16,951 bases of DNA from a virus, in the UHGV virus genome UHGV-0280597. One strand, 5' to 3'. Positions 2,782 to 16,265 of the stretch are shown here, in pieces. The position numbers and the translations under genes are program-made. The first letter of the stretch is position 1. The number at the start of each line of letters is the position of its first letter. Below the pieces are notes generated by a model. That model did not search any database. It was not told the origin of the DNA and worked only from the letters and a program-made list of their open reading frames with translations.

Positions 2782-3411
2782 TCACTCTCCTTTGATGCGA
2801 ATGCCAGCGGCGCGCTCGGCTTCACTTTGTTCCCAAAACCACTTGTGAAGCGCCATAAGCTTTTCGTCAATCGGTGCATATTTGCGATTAAAGTAGGCCT
2901 GAGCATCTTTCTCAGATTCGTCCGGTAATTCGCCAGGGCCAAACAGTGTGTTATAAATCCATGCCAGTCCGCTTTTAGCGTCGCCAGTCGATTGCCATTC
3001 GATAATGGCAGCTTGCATGACCAGAATGTTTTTCCCGATTAATAGGTCCAGTTCTTTGTACCGGTTGCGGATGTATGCATTCTCGCTTTGTAATTTTGCG
3101 TTGCGATTCTCTGCTGCTTCCAGCTCAACACGCAGCTTCCCTACCGTTAGCGCAATTTCCTCGTTCTCCTGGTCGCGGGATTTGATGTATTGCTGGTTCC
3201 TTTCCCGTTCATCCAGTAGTGCCAAAGCAATCTTTGGATTAAAGGCAGCAATAAATTCAGCGTTGTTTTTCAGAACGTGTTGCGCAATGGCCTGACTACT
3301 TAGTCGGACCTCATAACCTCGTGCGCCACGGTGTGGTTTATATGAGTCCCAGTCTCCCCACGTTGCTTTCTCTGCCACATCACGCAGTGCCTGATAGTTA
3401 ATTTCGCTCAC
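2782..3411 (-). CDS. Ead/Ea22-like protein, about 209 aa
   Basis: ORF-track ORF 2782..3432; likely start is the GTG at 3411 preceded by AAGGAGG with a 6-nt spacer; coiled-coil segment ([33 protein letters not shown]) recalls lambda Ea22-family proteins. Confidence 0.55.
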
Positions 3412-7170: not shown

Positions 7171-7470
7171 TCAAATAAGTGGTTTGCTGCCTAATTTCAT
7201 TTTCTGGCGACCAACACAAGTCACACCCATTTCACTGCGTGGCTTGCGGTAGTAAATACGGTTCTGTTTACTCTCGACTTCTTCTGCCTTCTTGCAGCGA
7301 AGGCTTCCGAGTGATGCTGCTTTATCTGCTCTGACGCAACCAGAGAGCTTTAGCGCAATTTTTCGCGCCAGTCGCTGCTCTTGCATTGCCTGTTCACGTT
7401 GAGCCTGTCTGCGTGCTCTGCGGCGATTTCTGGCGTTATCGTCAGCCAGATATGTAATGACTACTGTCAT
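7171..7470 (-). CDS. N: N-like transcription antitermination protein, 99 aa
   Basis: ORF-track ORF; GGAGG 5 nt upstream of the ATG at 7470; N-terminal arginine-rich motif (NARNRRRARRQAQ); C-terminus RKPRSEMGVTCVGRQKMKLGSKPLI resembles the lambda N C-terminus (recall); nut sites found in both operons. Confidence 0.8.
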   Translation of the reverse strand: MTVVITYLADDNARNRRRARRQAQREQAMQEQRLARKIALKLSGCVRADKAASLGSLRCKKAEEVESKQNRIYYRKPRSEMGVTCVGRQKMKLGSKPLI

Positions 7471-7782: not shown

Positions 7783-7825
7783 TTCCCGCATTTCGGCGGG
7801 ACAATCCCATCAATGTTAAAGAGCC
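7783..7825 (-). promoter_or_regulatory. nutL (boxA-like GGCTCTTTAACA plus boxB hairpin)
   Basis: Minus-strand reading GGCTCTTTAACA-12 nt-TCCCGCCGAAATGCGGGAA; the boxB hairpin is identical to the one at 9479-9497 downstream of cro. Confidence 0.7.
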
Positions 7826-8428: not shown

Positions 8429-9145
8429 TCAAACCAGCCTTAGTTTTGTCTCAATTGCAACGCCTATAATCTTGCAGTTTCCATTGATTGGCACGAGAGG
8501 CCATGCAGGGTTAAGTCCCTTGAGGTATTTATTTCCGCCGTCGATTATCAGCTTCTTGAATGTTGCTTCGTTAGAGTCAGAAAGTTTTGCTATGACCAAG
8601 CTGCCGTTGATCGCCTCCCTTCCGGTATCGAAAAGAACGAATGTTCCCTCTGGAATGCTTAACCCAACCGGTGCCGTCATTGAATCACCTTCCACTTTAA
8701 GCCAGAACGCATTACCTTGAATATGCGCGTCAGACTCAAGCCAAACATCTATGTCTTTAATGGTGTATGGTTCGCATGCTTCACACCACGAGCCAGCCTG
8801 GATACTGCTTAACACCGGATACCTCTTTCCTGCTCTGTATTCCCCTGCATACCTTACGTTGGCATCGCTCTTAAGGCTTTCTGCCTGTTCTGCAACCTTG
8901 GCAGCAATTGACTGGCTAAAATCAGCAATTGAGACTTGCAACAATCGTGCAAAACCAGATGCAACCTCAACGTTTAGCGCGTTTCTGCCATTAAGATAAT
9001 GCCCTACCGCTCCTTGGGTGATACCCAGTTCATCAGCGATTGAGTATTGGGTTATTCCCAATTCTTTCTTTTTTGACTCATACAAAGCCTTAAGCCGCTT
9101 AGCGTCTTCGAGCTGTTCTGTCGTCAGTGATTTTTTATTTTCCAT
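8429..9145 (-). CDS. cI: CI-like prophage repressor (HTH N-domain plus LexA/S24-type autocleavage C-domain), 238 aa
   Basis: ORF-track ORF; N-terminus MENKKSLTTEQLEDAKRLKALYESKKKELGITQ parallels lambda CI (recall); GDSM serine motif in the C-domain; divergent from cro across a 106-bp operator region; no Shine-Dalgarno before the ATG (leaderless-type start). Confidence 0.9.
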   Translation of the reverse strand: MENKKSLTTEQLEDAKRLKALYESKKKELGITQYSIADELGITQGAVGHYLNGRNALNVEVASGFARLLQVSIADFSQSIAAKVAEQAESLKSDANVRYAGEYRAGKRYPVLSSIQAGSWCEACEPYTIKDIDVWLESDAHIQGNAFWLKVEGDSMTAPVGLSIPEGTFVLFDTGREAINGSLVIAKLSDSNEATFKKLIIDGGNKYLKGLNPAWPLVPINGNCKIIGVAIETKLRLV

Positions 9146-9220: not shown

Positions 9221-9251
9221 CTTTGTTCATGGTTAATAACGGAGAGTGCAT

Positions 9252-9446
9252 ATGATTCGAATGACACTTGCCGATTACGCCAAAATCCATGGACAGGCTA
9301 AAGCAGCCAGTGACTTTGGTGTAATCCAGTGCGCTATCAGCAAGGCCATTCTGGCAGGCCGTAACATCATGGTTACGGTAAAGCCTGATGGCAGTGTGAT
9401 TGGAGAGGAAGTTCGTCCTTTCCCAAGCAACAAGAAAAACAAATAG
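9252..9446 (+). CDS. cro: Cro-like repressor, 64 aa from the ATG at 9252
   Basis: ORF-track ORF 9246..9446 (GTG); ATG at 9252 preceded by GGAGAG; sequence [62 protein letters not shown] parallels lambda Cro (recall). Confidence 0.85.
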
Positions 9447-9452
9447 TAACAC

Positions 9453-9497
9453 CGCTCTTTAACAGTCATGGTCCTCATTCCCGCCGAAATGCGGGAA
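9453..9497 (+). promoter_or_regulatory. nutR (boxA CGCTCTTTAACA plus boxB hairpin)
   Basis: CGCTCTTTAACA at 9453-9464 followed after 13 nt by hairpin TTCCCGC-CGAAAT-GCGGGAA (9478-9497); same boxB as nutL. Confidence 0.7.
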
Positions 9498-9554: not shown

Positions 9555-9833
9555 ATGCAACTTACAAGTACTCGCAAGAAAGCGAATGCAATTACAAGCA
9601 ACATCCTGAATCGAATTGCTGTACGTGGTCAGCGAAAGGTTGCTGATGCATTAGGGATTAATGAATCGCAAATTTCGCGATGGAAAGACAGCTTTATCCC
9701 AAAGATGGCCATGCTTCTGGCCGTTCTTGAATGGGGTGTTGAAGACGAGGAGTTGGCGGAACTGGCTAAGAAAGTAGCCAGAATGCTGACAAAAGAAAAA
9801 GCCCCGAAGAACGGCGAATTCTTCGAGGCCTGA
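9555..9833 (+). CDS. cII: CII-like transcriptional activator, 92 aa from the ATG at 9555
   Basis: ORF-track ORF 9468..9833 trimmed to the ATG at 9555 preceded by AAGGA; segment QISRWKDSFIPKMAMLLAVLEWGVEDEELAELAKKVARML parallels lambda CII (recall). Confidence 0.85.
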   Translation: MQLTSTRKKANAITSNILNRIAVRGQRKVADALGINESQISRWKDSFIPKMAMLLAVLEWGVEDEELAELAKKVARMLTKEKAPKNGEFFEA

Positions 9834-9867: not shown

Positions 9868-10029
9868 ATGACAAAACGTCGTAAGAAATACCAGGAAAAA
9901 GAAGAGATTCGACACCCTGATTCACCTGAGGGATTAGTGGTAGCCGCAGCAAATAACAGGGCGTTCGCAGAGCGCCTTGTTGGTGTTTACAGACTAGCCA
10001 AAGCAGGAGTGAAGCATGGGCGTCGTTAA
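9868..10029 (+). CDS. hypothetical small basic protein, 53 aa (below the ORF-track cutoff)
   Basis: Manual translation MTKRRKKYQEKEEIRHPDSPEGLVVAAANNRAFAERLVGVYRLAKAGVKHGRR; GGAG 6 nt upstream of the ATG at 9868; fills the gap between cII and the replication gene. Confidence 0.3.
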   Translation: MTKRRKKYQEKEEIRHPDSPEGLVVAAANNRAFAERLVGVYRLAKAGVKHGRR

Positions 10030-10906
10030 GTTAGCTGATTACAGGCATAACCCTGTACAACATCAGGAGGCATCCAGTATGGGGTATGTCTCTATACACC
10101 GCCAGTTTATGGACAGCAGGCTCTATAAGGACTCTCAGGCAGTACATCTTTGGCTTCACTTAATCCTCAAGGCTAATCACGAATCTACTGTCGTCAATAC
10201 GGATATCGGTCCGATAACTGTTGATCGCGGTCAGATGATAACTGGACGCCCGTCGCTGGTCAGAGAAACATTCATCCCCGACAACAAAGTTCGGAGCTTA
10301 TTACGGACTTTTGAGTCGAAAGGTATGCTTAATATTTGCTCGATGGGGAAGAAATTTAGCCTGTTTACAATCGTTAAATATGACGATTTTCAGGCAAAAA
10401 ATTGTCCAACGGTTGTCCAACGGTTGTCCAACGCAAACACCAGTAATGGCGCGGCTCTCAGCGGAGATTGTCCAACGGTTGTCCAACGGTTGTCCATAAA
10501 CAATAATATAAATAATATCTCTAATACTGACGTATTAGAGAGTGCCACAGCAGACAAAAAGTCTGACAAGAAAAAACCTTCCGTTAGCTGTCAGGATGTT
10601 GTCGATGCTTACCACGAAATCCTTCCTGAAGCGCCAAGAATCCGCGCACTGAATGACAAGCGTAAAAACCAGATCCGAACGTTCTGGCGCAAAGCCGGAG
10701 TGATAACCCGACAGCTTGACGGGCATGGTTTCACGATGCAGGACTGGAGAAATTATTTGAGCTACGTAGGCGAAAATTGCCGATGGATGTTCGAAGAGCG
10801 CCCAAACCATCAGCGCGGAACCGTCTGGCACAAAAAGGGATTTGATTTCCTGCTTAACGATAATACCTACCTGAAAGTTCGTGAGGGTGAACACGATGAC
10901 CGATAA
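10016..10906 (+). CDS. replication initiator (O-like) with origin iterons inside the coding sequence
   Basis: ORF-track ORF; alternative start ATG 10079 has a stronger Shine-Dalgarno (AGGAGG, 8-nt spacer); the iterons translate in frame as CPTVVQRLSN; stop overlaps the helicase start. Confidence 0.75.
   Translation: MGVVKLADYRHNPVQHQEASSMGYVSIHRQFMDSRLYKDSQAVHLWLHLILKANHESTVVNTDIGPITVDRGQMITGRPSLVRETFIPDNKVRSLLRTFESKGMLNICSMGKKFSLFTIVKYDDFQAKNCPTVVQRLSNANTSNGAALSGDCPTVVQRLSINNNINNISNTDVLESATADKKSDKKKPSVSCQDVVDAYHEILPEAPRIRALNDKRKNQIRTFWRKAGVITRQLDGHGFTMQDWRNYLSYVGENCRWMFEERPNHQRGTVWHKKGFDFLLNDNTYLKVREGEHDDR
10402..10530. repeat. ori iterons: six 11-bp direct repeats (TTGTCCAACGG) in two blocks of three, followed by an AT-rich tract
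   Basis: Units at 10402-10412, 10413-10423, 10424-10434 and 10468-10478, 10479-10489, 10490-10500 (last degenerate), then ataaacaataatataaataatatctctaatactg; lambdoid ori architecture. Confidence 0.75.
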
Positions 10907-12332
10907 TTTTTATGCGCCGCCCCATAGCATCGAGGCAGAGCAGGCGGTGATTGGTGGATTGCTTCTGGATGATGACAGCAGTGAGCGCGTCCAGAAGGTT
11001 CTGGCGATGCTGAATCCTGACTCATTTTACAGCCGACCACACAAAATCCTTTTCGAAGAAATAACCAGAATGCACCGGGAGCAAAAGCCAGTAGATGGCC
11101 TGACGCTTTTCGATGAACTGGAGCGTAAATCGTTAACGGCGTCTGTTGGCGGTTTTGCTTATATCGCTGAGATCGCAAAGAACACGCCAAGCGCAGCAAA
11201 CATCGTTGCCTATGCAATGCAGGTTCGTGAAACCGCAATGGAACGCTACGCCATCAACCGCATGACTGAAGCGACGGAATTGCTCTATTCCCGCAACGGA
11301 ATGACTGCAACGCAGAAGTACGAAGCTATTCAGGCGATTTTCACGCAACTGACAGACCATGCAAAAACCGGATCGCGTCGCGGCCTTCGCTCATTTGGTG
11401 AGGTCATGGAAGACTGGGTTAGCGACCTTGAGAAGCGATTTGACCCGTCAGGCGAACAACGAGGAATGAGCACAGGGATCCCATCGCTGGACAGGATGCT
11501 GTCACCGAAAGGTCTGGTGAAAGGCTCTCTGTTTGTCATTGGCGCTCGCCCTAAGATGGGGAAAACGACGCTATACAGCCAGATGGCAATCAACTGCGCA
11601 GTGCATGAGAAAAAGCCCGCTCTGATGTTCAGCCTTGAAATGCCCGGTGACCAGATACTGGAAAAACTGGTAGGGCAGAAGTCAGGTGTTAACCCAAATA
11701 TTTTTTACCTTCCGGTGACAAATGACGCTGATGACGGATATCAGGGTGATTACGATGGTGACTTCAACAGGGCGATCGAAACAGCCAATCGCTTGAGTGA
11801 AATCGACCTGCTTTACATCGACGACACGCCGGGATTATCTCTGGCTCAAATCGTCAGCGAAAGCCGTCGAATCAAGCGAGAAAAAGGATGTGTTGGCATG
11901 ATTCTGGTCGATTACCTGACACTAATGACTGCTGAGAAGGCCGATCGAAACGACCTTGCCTACGGCATGATCACCAAAGGACTGAAGAACCTTGCCAAAG
12001 AGCTTGATTGCGTTGTTGTGCTTTTGACACAGCTTAACCGCGCGCTGGAAAGCCGAACCAATAAACGCCCATTACCAAGTGACTCGCGAGATACAGGGCA
12101 GATTGAACAGGATTGCGATTATTGGGTGGGGATCCATCGGGAAGGTGCTTTTGATGACAGCGTTCCTCCTGGTGAAACCGAACTAATCCTTCGTCTCAAT
12201 CGTCATGGCAATACCGGCACGGTGTATTGCATTCAGGCAAATGGCGCTATTTATGACACAGACCAACAGTCTGCTGAAATGCGCCGCCGTGAACGCGAGG
12301 AACCGCAATCCAAGAAGAAAGGAGGATTCTGA
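10896..12332 (+). CDS. DnaB-family replicative helicase, 478 aa
   Basis: ORF-track ORF 10881..12332 trimmed to the ATG at 10896 (GAGGGTGA upstream); N-terminal SIEAEQAVIGGLL motif and Walker A GARPKMGKT typical of DnaB-like helicases (recall). Confidence 0.9.
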   Translation: MTDNFYAPPHSIEAEQAVIGGLLLDDDSSERVQKVLAMLNPDSFYSRPHKILFEEITRMHREQKPVDGLTLFDELERKSLTASVGGFAYIAEIAKNTPSAANIVAYAMQVRETAMERYAINRMTEATELLYSRNGMTATQKYEAIQAIFTQLTDHAKTGSRRGLRSFGEVMEDWVSDLEKRFDPSGEQRGMSTGIPSLDRMLSPKGLVKGSLFVIGARPKMGKTTLYSQMAINCAVHEKKPALMFSLEMPGDQILEKLVGQKSGVNPNIFYLPVTNDADDGYQGDYDGDFNRAIETANRLSEIDLLYIDDTPGLSLAQIVSESRRIKREKGCVGMILVDYLTLMTAEKADRNDLAYGMITKGLKNLAKELDCVVVLLTQLNRALESRTNKRPLPSDSRDTGQIEQDCDYWVGIHREGAFDDSVPPGETELILRLNRHGNTGTVYCIQANGAIYDTDQQSAEMRRREREEPQSKKKGGF

Positions 12333-12412
12333 TGACCATCTACATCACTGAGCTTGTAACAGGCCTGCTGGTAATCGCAGGCCTTTTTATTTGGGGGAGA
12401 GGGAAGTCATGA
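12332..12412 (+). CDS. hypothetical 26-aa hydrophobic peptide
   Basis: Manual translation MTIYITELVTGLLVIAGLFIWGRGKS; AAGGAGG with 6-nt spacer before the ATG at 12332; start overlaps the helicase stop and its stop overlaps the ninB start. Confidence 0.35.
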   Translation: MTIYITELVTGLLVIAGLFIWGRGKS

Positions 12413-12849
12413 AAAAACTAACCTTTGAAATTCGATCTCCAGCACATCAGCAAAACGCTATTCACGCAGTACAGCAAATCCTTCCAGACCCAACCAAACC
12501 AATCGTAGTAACCATTCAGGAACGCAACCGCAGCTTAGACCAAAACAGGAAGCTATGGGCCTGCTTAGGTGACGTCTCTCGTCAGGTTGAATGGCATGGT
12601 CGCTGGCTGGATGCAGAAAGCTGGAAGTGTGTGTTTACCGCAGCATTAAAGCAGCAGGATGTTGTTCCTAACCTTGCCGGGAATGGCTTTGTGGTAATAG
12701 GCCAGTCAACCAGCAGGATGCGTGTAAGCGAATTTGCGGAGCTATTAGAGCTTATACAGGCATTCGGTACAGAGCGTGGCGTTAAGTGGTCAGACGAAGC
12801 GCGACTGGCTCTGGAGTGGAAAGCGAGATGGGGAGATCGGGCTGCATGA
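12409..12849 (+). CDS. ninB: NinB (Orf-family recombination protein), 146 aa
   Basis: ORF-track ORF 12391..12849 trimmed to the ATG at 12409; sequence MKKLTFEIRSPAHQQNAIHAVQQILPDP matches my recollection of lambda NinB closely. Confidence 0.9.
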   Translation: MKKLTFEIRSPAHQQNAIHAVQQILPDPTKPIVVTIQERNRSLDQNRKLWACLGDVSRQVEWHGRWLDAESWKCVFTAALKQQDVVPNLAGNGFVVIGQSTSRMRVSEFAELLELIQAFGTERGVKWSDEARLALEWKARWGDRAA

Positions 12850-15111: not shown

Positions 15112-15296
15112 ACGCCACAATTCAAACGATACCAGAGCTTCTTATCCAGACACGAGGCAATCAGACCGAAGTGGCGAGGATGCTTTCCTGCGCAAGAGGA
15201 ACAGTGCTCAAGTACAACCGAGACAGCAAAGGCGAGCGTCATGTAATAGTTAACGGCGTCCTGATGGTCAAACAGGGCAAGAGGGGAAGACGATGA
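15108..15296 (+). CDS. ninH: NinH-like small DNA-binding protein, 62 aa
   Basis: ORF-track ORF; GNQTEVARMLSCARGTVLKYNRDSKGERHVIVNGVLMV resembles lambda NinH (recall); overlaps the rusA stop. Confidence 0.75.
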   Translation: MNATIQTIPELLIQTRGNQTEVARMLSCARGTVLKYNRDSKGERHVIVNGVLMVKQGKRGRR

Positions 15297-15916
15297 GACT
15301 CGAAAGCGTAGCTAAATTTCATTCGCCAAAAAGCCCGATGATGAGCGACTCACCACGGGCCACGGCTTCTGACTCTCTTTCCGGTACTGATGTGATGGCT
15401 GCTATGGGGATGGCGCAATCACAAGCCGGATTTGGAATGGCTGCATTCTGCGGTAAGCATGAACTCAGCCAGAACGACAAACAAAAGGCTATCAACTATC
15501 TGATGCAATATGCACACAAGGTATCGGGGAAATACCGTGGTGTGGCAAAGCTCGAAGGAAATACTAAGGCAAAGGTACTGCAAGTGCTCGCAACATTCGC
15601 TTATGCGGATTATTGCCGTAGTGCCGCGACGCCGGGCGCAAGATGCAGAGATTGCCACGGTACAGGCCGTGCGGTTGATATTGCCAAAACAGAGCAGTGG
15701 GGGAGAGTTGTTGAGAAAGAGTGCGGAAGATGCAAAGGTGTCGGCTATTCAAGAATGCCAGCAAGCGCCGCATATCGCGCTGTAACGATGCTAATCCCAA
15801 ACCTTACTCAACCCACCTGGTCACGCACTGTTAAGCCGCTGTATGACGCTCTGGTGGTGCAATGCCACAAAGAAGAGTCAATCGCAGACAACATTTTGAA
15901 TGCGGTCACACGTTAA
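15293..15916 (+). CDS. Q: Q late-gene antiterminator, 207 aa
   Basis: ORF-track ORF; sequence MRLESVAKFHSPKSPMMSDSPRATASDS...CRDCHGTGR...CGRCKGVG matches my recollection of lambda Q very closely; followed by a pR'-like promoter and terminator. Confidence 0.9.
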   Translation: MRLESVAKFHSPKSPMMSDSPRATASDSLSGTDVMAAMGMAQSQAGFGMAAFCGKHELSQNDKQKAINYLMQYAHKVSGKYRGVAKLEGNTKAKVLQVLATFAYADYCRSAATPGARCRDCHGTGRAVDIAKTEQWGRVVEKECGRCKGVGYSRMPASAAYRAVTMLIPNLTQPTWSRTVKPLYDALVVQCHKEESIADNILNAVTR

Positions 15917-16190: not shown

Positions 16191-16265
16191 GGGTCAGTCG
16201 TATAAAGGTCATTACGGAAGGCTGTTAACCTTCTTATCGTGGTTCGAGTCCACGCTGTCCCGCCA
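16191..16265 (+). tRNA. tRNA-like gene, anticodon GTT (Asn), 75 nt with encoded CCA
   Basis: Manual fold: acceptor GGGTCAG/CTGTCCC (one U-U mismatch), D-arm GTAT/TTAC (one mismatch), anticodon stem GAAGG/CCTTC with loop CTGTTAA, T-arm CGTGG-TTCGAGT-CCACG, discriminator G, CCA. Confidence 0.5.

Follow-up and report, generated by a model that had tools for sequence, protein, structure and literature searches.

GenBank annotation, peptide identity and a match to the published terminator identify the 81 nt between the replicative helicase gene and ninB in a 16,951-nt stretch of the virus genome UHGV-0280597 (the window) as the lambdoid ninA-tR2 cassette, an element that has already been described. 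Judged from the same sequence comparisons, the dominant role of these 81 nt would lie at the RNA level, as the tR2 intrinsic terminator. We favor, with a little better than even confidence, the view that the ninA reading frame is a translated linker laid over the tR2 terminator within the interlinked chain of nin genes, and that its peptide is incidental. An earlier, sequence-only reading of this DNA had described a 26-aa hydrophobic micro-ORF at 12332-12412 between helicase and ninB, which the sequence, the ORF list and Pfam bear out, and had offered two roles for it, a translational-coupling spacer or a genuine small membrane peptide. As detailed below, the first fits the data, and the second finds little support in view of a variable tail and a transmembrane likeness that is specific to one allele.

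The early region and the anatomy of ninA

The region is a standard lambdoid early region. The genes and sites that surround the reading frame are as follows.

7171..7470, minus strand: N-like antiterminator gene (PHROG 271 'anti-termination protein N-like', 3.5e-36)
8429-9145, minus strand: CI-type repressor gene
9246-9446: Cro gene
9453..9497, plus strand: putative nutR, directly past cro, with boxA CGCTCTTTAA at 9453-9462 and then a hairpin at ~9478-9497
Between the putative nutR and the next ORF in this list: CII gene
10016-10906: ORF in the lambda O position, with a homologue in mEp234 that bears the annotation 'replication protein O'
10896..12332, plus strand: DnaB-type replicative helicase gene, the equivalent of P22 gene 12 (Pfam DnaB 5e-31, DnaB_C 3e-60)
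12409..12849, plus strand: ninB (orf) recombination mediator gene (Pfam NinB 1e-54)
Past ninB: Dam-type methyltransferase gene, then RusA gene
15293-15916: Q-like antiterminator gene
Past the Q-like gene: two tRNA genes

The longest ORF of the helicase begins with a GTG at 10881; in relatives the annotated start is the ATG that corresponds to 10896, and the mEp234 homologue is annotated as 1437 nt. The NinB protein encoded here is 100% identical to phage 21 NinB by tblastn. The nutR assignment is one of position and consensus, boxA-like matches being no rarer than chance. An N system lies upstream, and the terminator falls within the pR operon, with the replication genes on one side and ninB/Q on the other. 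This is the position that tR2 has in lambda, and from it, on this evidence, tR2 would make expression of the nin genes and Q depend on N antitermination. The N-like product, judged by its family match, should enable RNA polymerase to pass tR2, and tR2 in this phage is presumably N dependent.

The reading frame itself is tied closely to both of its neighbors by the following elements.

12319..12325, plus strand: Shine-Dalgarno sequence AAGGAGG of ninA, within the 3′ end of the helicase gene
12332..12412, plus strand: ninA micro-ORF, 26 codons plus stop, product MTIYITELVTGLLVIAGLFIWGRGKS
12396..12403, plus strand: likely ninB ribosome-binding site, the purine-rich GGAGAGGG, in the 3′ tail of ninA

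A spacer of 6 nt, ATTCTG, separates AAGGAGG from the ATG at 12332-12334, and the AAGGAGG-6 nt-ATG arrangement noted earlier is indeed present at 12319-12334. The helicase stop TGA occupies 12330-12332, and A12332 is common to this TGA and to the ninA ATG (TGATG, 12330-12334). At the other end, the ninA TGA (12410-12412) and the ninB ATG (12409-12411) overlap as ATGA, 12409-12412. Both overlaps had been read correctly from the sequence before, and the same interlinked start and stop of ninA are seen in lambda, phage 21, P22 and mEp234. As for the likely ninB site, the phage 434 record annotates a ribosome-binding site at the position equivalent to GGAGAGGG, and this stretch is retained even in loci in which ninA/tR2 has been replaced. 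A 26-codon ORF by itself is within chance expectation, because the ORF listing for the surrounding 600 nt has 13 ORFs of ≥20 aa. What is beyond chance is the recurrence of ninA across many mosaic contexts.

Identity of the cassette and its terminator

In an alignment with lambda 40567-40647, which runs from the ATG through the ninB start, all bases are equal except 3, and the homology to lambda starts precisely at the ninA ATG. An exact cluster look-up reveals that the peptide has been deposited as Sf101 NinA and as ES18 gp63 (26/26 identical), while it differs in one residue (I9V) from the NinA of lambda and of phage 21. The I9V haplotype is found in at least 16 viral and at least 18 metagenome contexts. 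The ORF has the further marks of NinA, which are a length of 24-27 codons, 26 in this case, a beginning with MTIYITEL, and a place directly 5′ of ninB, as here, or of the first nin gene. GenBank annotates ninA in phage 21 (CAB39987), mEp234, P22 (AAM81429/Q38675), Nil2 (CAC95090) and Sf101. Several records also register the terminator: that of P22 carries ninA with a terminator feature inside, that of Nil2 lists 'ninA' plus 'tR2 terminator', that of phage 434 lists 'Orf26' plus a terminator, and that of HK75 has a terminator annotated at the tR2 site. The lambda names ninA and 'orf26' reportedly go back to Kroger and Hobom in 1982. Pfam holds no family for the 26-aa peptide, and PGAP annotation of the ninA ORF is found in none of the 25 E. 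coli records listed. For annotation, the value of these identifications is that an apparent novel small membrane protein, an ORF that RefSeq omits, turns out to be a textbook terminator read in frame. The suggestion that the ORF occupies the place of lambda ren is incorrect, because lambda carries both genes; in lambda, 434 and phage 21, ren is followed by ninA (40567-40647 in lambda), whereas in this phage the helicase is joined straight to ninA.

The terminator lies inside the reading frame, and its parts, from a consensus terminator scan and the sequence, are as follows.

12361..12384, plus strand: tR2 hairpin, with stem AGGCCTGC at 12361-12368, loop TGGTAATC at 12369-12376 and stem GCAGGCCT at 12377-12384
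12384..12392, plus strand: tR2 U-tract TTTTTATTT

The stem has 8 bp, 6 of them GC pairs, and the loop has 8 nt; the predicted fold is -15.7 kcal/mol, and T12384 can also pair with A12361. Both the GC-rich hairpin (12361-12384) and the T-run (to 12392) had been overlooked in the sequence-only reading. Positions 12358-12391 match in 34/34 positions the TR2-cut oligo that was used to clone lambda tR2 (Li et al. 2015, Table S2). The geometry agrees as well with that report (PMC4824070), in which tR2 lies 30 bp past the NinA AUG and 16 bp ahead of the NinA stop. The fold z-score of the 66-nt region is -0.69 against shuffles, which indicates no excess stability, and for this reason the terminator call rests on the consensus scan, the tR2 identity and the compensatory alleles described below, and not on fold energy. 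The centroid fold of the same 66-nt region contains the terminator hairpin only, with no alternative antiterminator structure, and Rfam has no family that matches at the ninA/tR2 site. In the literature, lambda tR2 works as an intrinsic terminator both in vitro and in vivo, and in vitro studies of termination use it as a model. Given this identity, release of transcripts at tR2 would be expected in this phage also, with N-modified polymerase reading through. Transcripts released at the U-tract end before the ninA stop codon.

The overlap of terminator and frame also explains the appearance of the peptide. The supposed transmembrane helix is the tR2 hairpin plus U-tract read in frame 0: the hairpin encodes NinA residues 11-18, hairpin and U-tract together encode residues 11-21, and the hydrophobic core GLLVIAGLFIW is these elements spelled in the ninA frame.

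Distribution, junctions and hairpin alleles

Among 5426 complete E. coli genomes, 2062 (~38%) carry the ninA/tR2 element, at 3051 places in all, and it also occurs in 415 phage records. Our comparative set comprised ~185 distinct viral and 90 metagenomic contexts. The element is just 2-14% diverged, and its conservation is therefore largely recent shared ancestry. Frameshift or loss of the ORF in relatives, which the earlier reading would have counted against it, is not the rule; the ORF is kept in most, and the canonical architecture is kept in ~93% of the 185 distinct contexts. About 7 of the 185 copies are either fused in frame or carry a frameshift, caused by a 1-nt indel in the G-run or T-run, and these copies reside in apparently intact prophage regions.

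Every context anchored on the ninA 5′ end has the hairpin plus T-run (0/168 without it), and the hairpin occurs without the ninA start in 5/185 viral and 3/90 metagenome contexts. In these the ninA start is missing because the TAA of an HNH endonuclease gene sits 1 nt ahead of the hairpin; terminator-only copies of this HNH type are found in Stx2 phage 1717, PA28 and similar contigs. The terminator is bracketed by the BLAST boundaries, which fall at ORF nt 30-81, 30-76, 1-70 and 1-76. Across these sequences, the terminator appears as the indispensable constant core of the cassette.

The junctions on both sides follow a common pattern. On the left, 8 unrelated upstream genes end at the same ninA ATG, with stops that overlap or abut it; an SD-like motif stands 4-18 nt ahead of the ATG in 7 of these 8 unrelated classes, and the upstream stop lies 29 nt ahead of the hairpin in all ATG-type junctions. 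On the right, at least 6 unrelated downstream contexts have the ninA-frame stop overlapping the next start (ATGA/GTGA), and the remaining junctions are mostly within 14 nt, with overlaps of 8-14 nt or gaps of ≤10 nt. It is with these recurring junctions that the earlier proposal of a translational-coupling spacer is in good agreement. About 15 ninB loci might be read as being without ninA/tR2, a reading that we rejected; a gene of 70-75 aa is inserted there, and an HK97 gp56-type ninA and terminator stand ahead of it, displaced upstream by ~200 nt. No ORF-embedded terminator was found directly 5′ of diverged ninB in a Yersinia phage, Stx phage ST2-8624, mEp515, Enterobacter or Pseudocitrobacter. 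A NinB scan of genome contigs returned mostly lambda DNA contamination in unrelated taxa, with little divergence.

Three hairpin alleles are present in the set: tR2 itself, GGGCTATT-TACAC-AGTAGCCC (IME10, HK97 gp56), and GGGCCACT-TACAC-AGTGGCCT, with compensatory changes separating the second from the third. The T-run is present in all three, the folds range from -12.6 to -15.7 kcal/mol, and the ninA frame is open through each of them; across the hairpin, 2 of the 3 reading frames are open. Variants in the tR2 stem are mostly C-to-T, preserving G-U pairs. Variants in the loop are tolerated, among them the recurrent L13Q, with at least 13 copies.

Proposed translation across tR2 and comparison with known systems

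In the mechanism that we favor, tR2 would halt pR transcription past the replication genes, and N loaded at nutR would modify RNA polymerase and so extend transcription into ninB and on through the remaining nin genes and Q. Ribosomes that end the helicase would restart at the overlapping ninA ATG, aided by AAGGAGG. On read-through RNA, these ribosomes would cross the hairpin, halt at the ATGA and could restart on ninB, and the nin chain would stay translationally interlinked with no untranslated gap. On tR2-terminated RNA, ribosomes on ninA would need tmRNA rescue, because ninA has no stop codon there, and the message would be destabilized. SD-like motifs in 7/8 upstream classes, recurring stop/start overlaps and a frame that is open in all alleles support such a linker, and from these we infer that coupling may be the role for which the ORF is selected.

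Experiments with lambda tR2 bear on this mechanism. On a plasmid, the NinA start site proved active and 'not weak' (Li et al. 2015, PMC4824070), and it halved an upstream RFP; mutating the NinA RBS or AUG restored RFP, and the loss was attributed to non-stop translation on tR2-terminated RNA. NinA translation cut tR2 termination efficiency by just ~10%. In that construct the upstream stop stood apart from the NinA AUG, unlike the native overlap. The same paper cites a lambda ribosome-profiling paper on NinA translation, and it modelled a ribosome exclusion/interference distance of 27 nt. Since the helicase stop is 29 nt from the stem, beyond these 27 nt, helicase-terminating ribosomes should not suppress tR2, and presumably the hairpin could be reached only by ribosomes that translate ninA. 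A phage with the nin5 deletion, from which ren-ninA-ninI is missing, is viable (PMC3349717).

Because its start is fused to any upstream stop and its stop to any downstream gene, ninA can be viewed as a ribosome carrier across tR2. A more ambitious proposal, which we put forward tentatively and rate well short of even, is that ninA is a selected device placing translation over tR2, combining ribosome carriage on N-antiterminated RNA with non-stop, tmRNA-dependent decay of terminated RNA. The preservation of the layout over three alleles and many junctions leaves room for a contribution of translation across tR2, through coupling or through non-stop decay of terminated RNA, to the timing of lambdoid early genes. 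If translation over tR2 were indeed selected, replication-gene expression would be tied to N activity. Some lambda-P22 hybrid phages depend on tmRNA, an old observation, and selected translation over tR2 might bear on this dependence.

An alternative that we consider very unlikely is that NinA is a genuine small membrane peptide, acting in exclusion, membrane perturbation or modulation of host membrane proteins, and that the terminator merely shares its sequence. The best 19-residue Kyte-Doolittle window of NinA here is 2.03, against a classical transmembrane threshold of 1.6, and to this extent the transmembrane helix predicted earlier stands for the present allele. However, the mean for the hairpin-encoded segment, 2.5 in the allele here, is lower in the two others, at 1.3 and 0.96, and the transmembrane-like character is therefore allele-specific. 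The basic tail of the same prediction does not hold up as a general feature, as the tails seen are GRGKS, GRGKT, GRGK, GRVNRG, GRGKCG, GRGIGGFKK, CGGEK, the acidic IKNEGDPDGHR of the HK97 gp56 allele, and none at all; across these sequences the C-terminal tail appears to have no conservation. A strong SD, an active start site and the absence of any charged residue from the hairpin-encoded segment in the two commonest alleles would all suit a membrane product, but L13Q recurs in that segment, the terminator is kept without the ninA start in some phages, a Pfam family is absent, the nin5 deletion phage is viable (PMC3349717), and full-length NinA could come only from read-through RNA, because the ORF has no stop on tR2-terminated transcripts. 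Selection tests were carried out on codons 2-10, which lie outside the hairpin constraint. A first sample gave 8 synonymous and 6 non-synonymous distinct variants (P=0.013-0.025), and an independent metagenome sample gave 5 and 9 (P=0.38), so the synonymous excess was not reproduced. Upon pooling, 18/19 variants are synonymous or BLOSUM62-conservative vs 65% expected (frame 0, P=0.003); the two other frames give no signal, and in frame 1 four of the variants would read as stops. These counts favor the membrane peptide to a degree: they suggest a weak, frame-specific coding signature in codons 2-10 and hint at some constraint on the peptide or the nascent chain, which counts against a pure linker, because a pure linker would need none. 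Taken together, the case for a functional peptide is a weak one, and the peptide itself is probably without a separate function.

The same observations can be set against two further explanations. One, which we regard as unlikely, makes ninA a regulatory ORF whose translation tunes tR2 or the fate of terminated RNA, either through melting of the hairpin by a ribosome coupled from the gene upstream, which would raise read-through, or through tmRNA/RNase R decay triggered by non-stop ninA, which would limit the replication genes when N is low. Such regulation would agree with an upstream stop that lies outside the 27-nt distance, at 29 nt from the hairpin, such that only a ninA-restarting ribosome arrives, with the ORF-over-terminator layout in three hairpin alleles, and with the start site that halved an upstream reporter until it was mutated (PMC4824070). 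It is harder to reconcile with a drop in termination efficiency of just ~10% in the same work, with a fold that is free of an antiterminator structure (z=-0.69) and with the absence of regulatory codon runs, and our literature search gave a tR2-tmRNA link in Li et al. alone. The other explanation, in our estimate the least probable of those considered here, holds that ninA is an unselected by-product, an open frame carried along with a conserved terminator, with the SD and ATGA reflecting the general style of nin junctions. This would sit well with the commonness of short ORFs (13 with ≥20 aa within 600 nt), the two open frames of three across the hairpin, the largely recent shared ancestry of an element that is 2-14% diverged, the failure of the synonymous excess in the second sample, and the omission of the ORF by PGAP in the 25 records listed. 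It would leave unexplained the SD-like motif at the right distance in 7/8 unrelated upstream genes, the in-frame stop/start overlaps in at least 6 unrelated right junctions, the 18/19 synonymous or conservative variants in frame 0 only, with four of the variants stops in frame 1, and a start site that is experimentally active (PMC4824070).

Among known systems, type I toxins and membrane proteins of <50 aa are comparable to ninA in a length of ~26 aa and in a single hydrophobic stretch of transmembrane length; ninA differs from these in a core that the terminator dictates and that lacks conservation between alleles, and in a variable tail. The trpL, hisL and pyrL attenuators likewise place a short translated ORF over an intrinsic terminator, where ribosome position could affect folding. 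In contrast to them, ninA has neither an antiterminator stem in the fold nor a run of regulatory codons in the peptide, and it lies mid-operon rather than in a 5′ leader, under what would be N control. The 32-aa ORF of the HK97 gp56/IME10 type, often mis-named 'histone H1', has the same first 32 nt as ninA and an intrinsic terminator at the equivalent place inside the ORF, in the same frame. It differs in its 22-nt hairpin GGGCTATT-TACAC-AGTAGCCC, in a less hydrophobic core, AIYTVALFYW, in its acidic tail, and in being followed by a gene of 70-75 aa and not directly by ninB. Lambdoid NinA in general has start and stop overlaps like those seen here, with no difference of substance. In the case of lambda tR2 (lambda ~40596-40627), the hairpin, loop and U-tract are identical to those in the window, and they occupy the same place in the pR operon, past the replication genes and before ninB, with an N-type gene present here too; the cassettes differ in their upstream gene, which is ren in lambda and a DnaB-type helicase here, and in two bases of ninA codons 8-9.

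Terminator hairpins in other gene contexts

In Stx2 phage 1717, phage PA28 and an IMG/VR contig (loci L123, L124 and L059 of the comparison), the 5' end of the micro-ORF ninA is replaced by an HNH endonuclease gene, which lies directly upstream of the hairpin of the intrinsic terminator tR2, with a gap of only 1 nt between its TAA stop codon and the stem. By the distance rule of Li et al. (2015; PMC4824070), a ribosome sitting on this TAA should suppress termination at tR2, and the terminator may therefore be weak in these three HNH-type phages. A different arrangement is seen in another IMG/VR contig (L195), where the third hairpin allele is contained within a 109-codon ORF. As the ninA frame of this contig continues in frame into the downstream gene, the terminator falls close to the start of an extended reading frame.

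Database names and contaminating lambda DNA

The 32-aa peptide of the HK97 gp56 type, MTIYITELITGAIYTVALFYWIKNEGDPDGHR, is encoded by a terminator-spanning micro-ORF and is named 'histone H1' in many NCBI records, an evident annotation error that has spread through E. coli, Salmonella and Shigella genomes. In the phage ECP1 record (KY979108.1; L004), the product names are off by one gene: the helicase is labeled 'NinA protein', the 81-nt ORF 'NinB protein', and ninB 'DNA N-6-adenine-methyltransferase'. The scan of genome contigs also returned near-identical lambda ninB/ninA DNA, with NinB identities of 95–100%, on low-coverage contigs (L006–L019, L023 and L026–L033) of assemblies labeled Pseudomonas, Oceanobacillus, Bradyrhizobium, Psychrobacter, Nocardioides, Kitasatospora, Veillonella and others. 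These sequences are almost certainly lambda DNA contaminating the assemblies.

Other regulatory and RNA elements of the window

The following features were located in the window.

Additional features of the window
7816-7825 (-), putative nutL: boxA-like GGCTCTTTAA, upstream of the N-like gene
9453-9497 (+), putative nutR: boxA CGCTCTTTAA, then hairpin TTCCCGC-CGAAA-TGCGGGAA, directly after cro
9799-9831 (-), terminator-like site: 14-bp stem and T-run, from the terminator scan
16191-16262 (+), tRNA gene 1: Rfam tRNA, 55 bits
16271-16343 (+), tRNA gene 2: Rfam tRNA, 61 bits

Because boxA-like matches occur at a frequency not below chance, the nutR and nutL assignments are based on position. The terminator-like site, the top-scoring one of the scan, is found at the 3' end of the CII gene, where lambda has the terminator of the antisense OOP RNA; Rfam gave no match at this site. 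Both tRNA genes follow the gene for the Q-like antiterminator, a position at which Stx-type lambdoid phages carry tRNAs.
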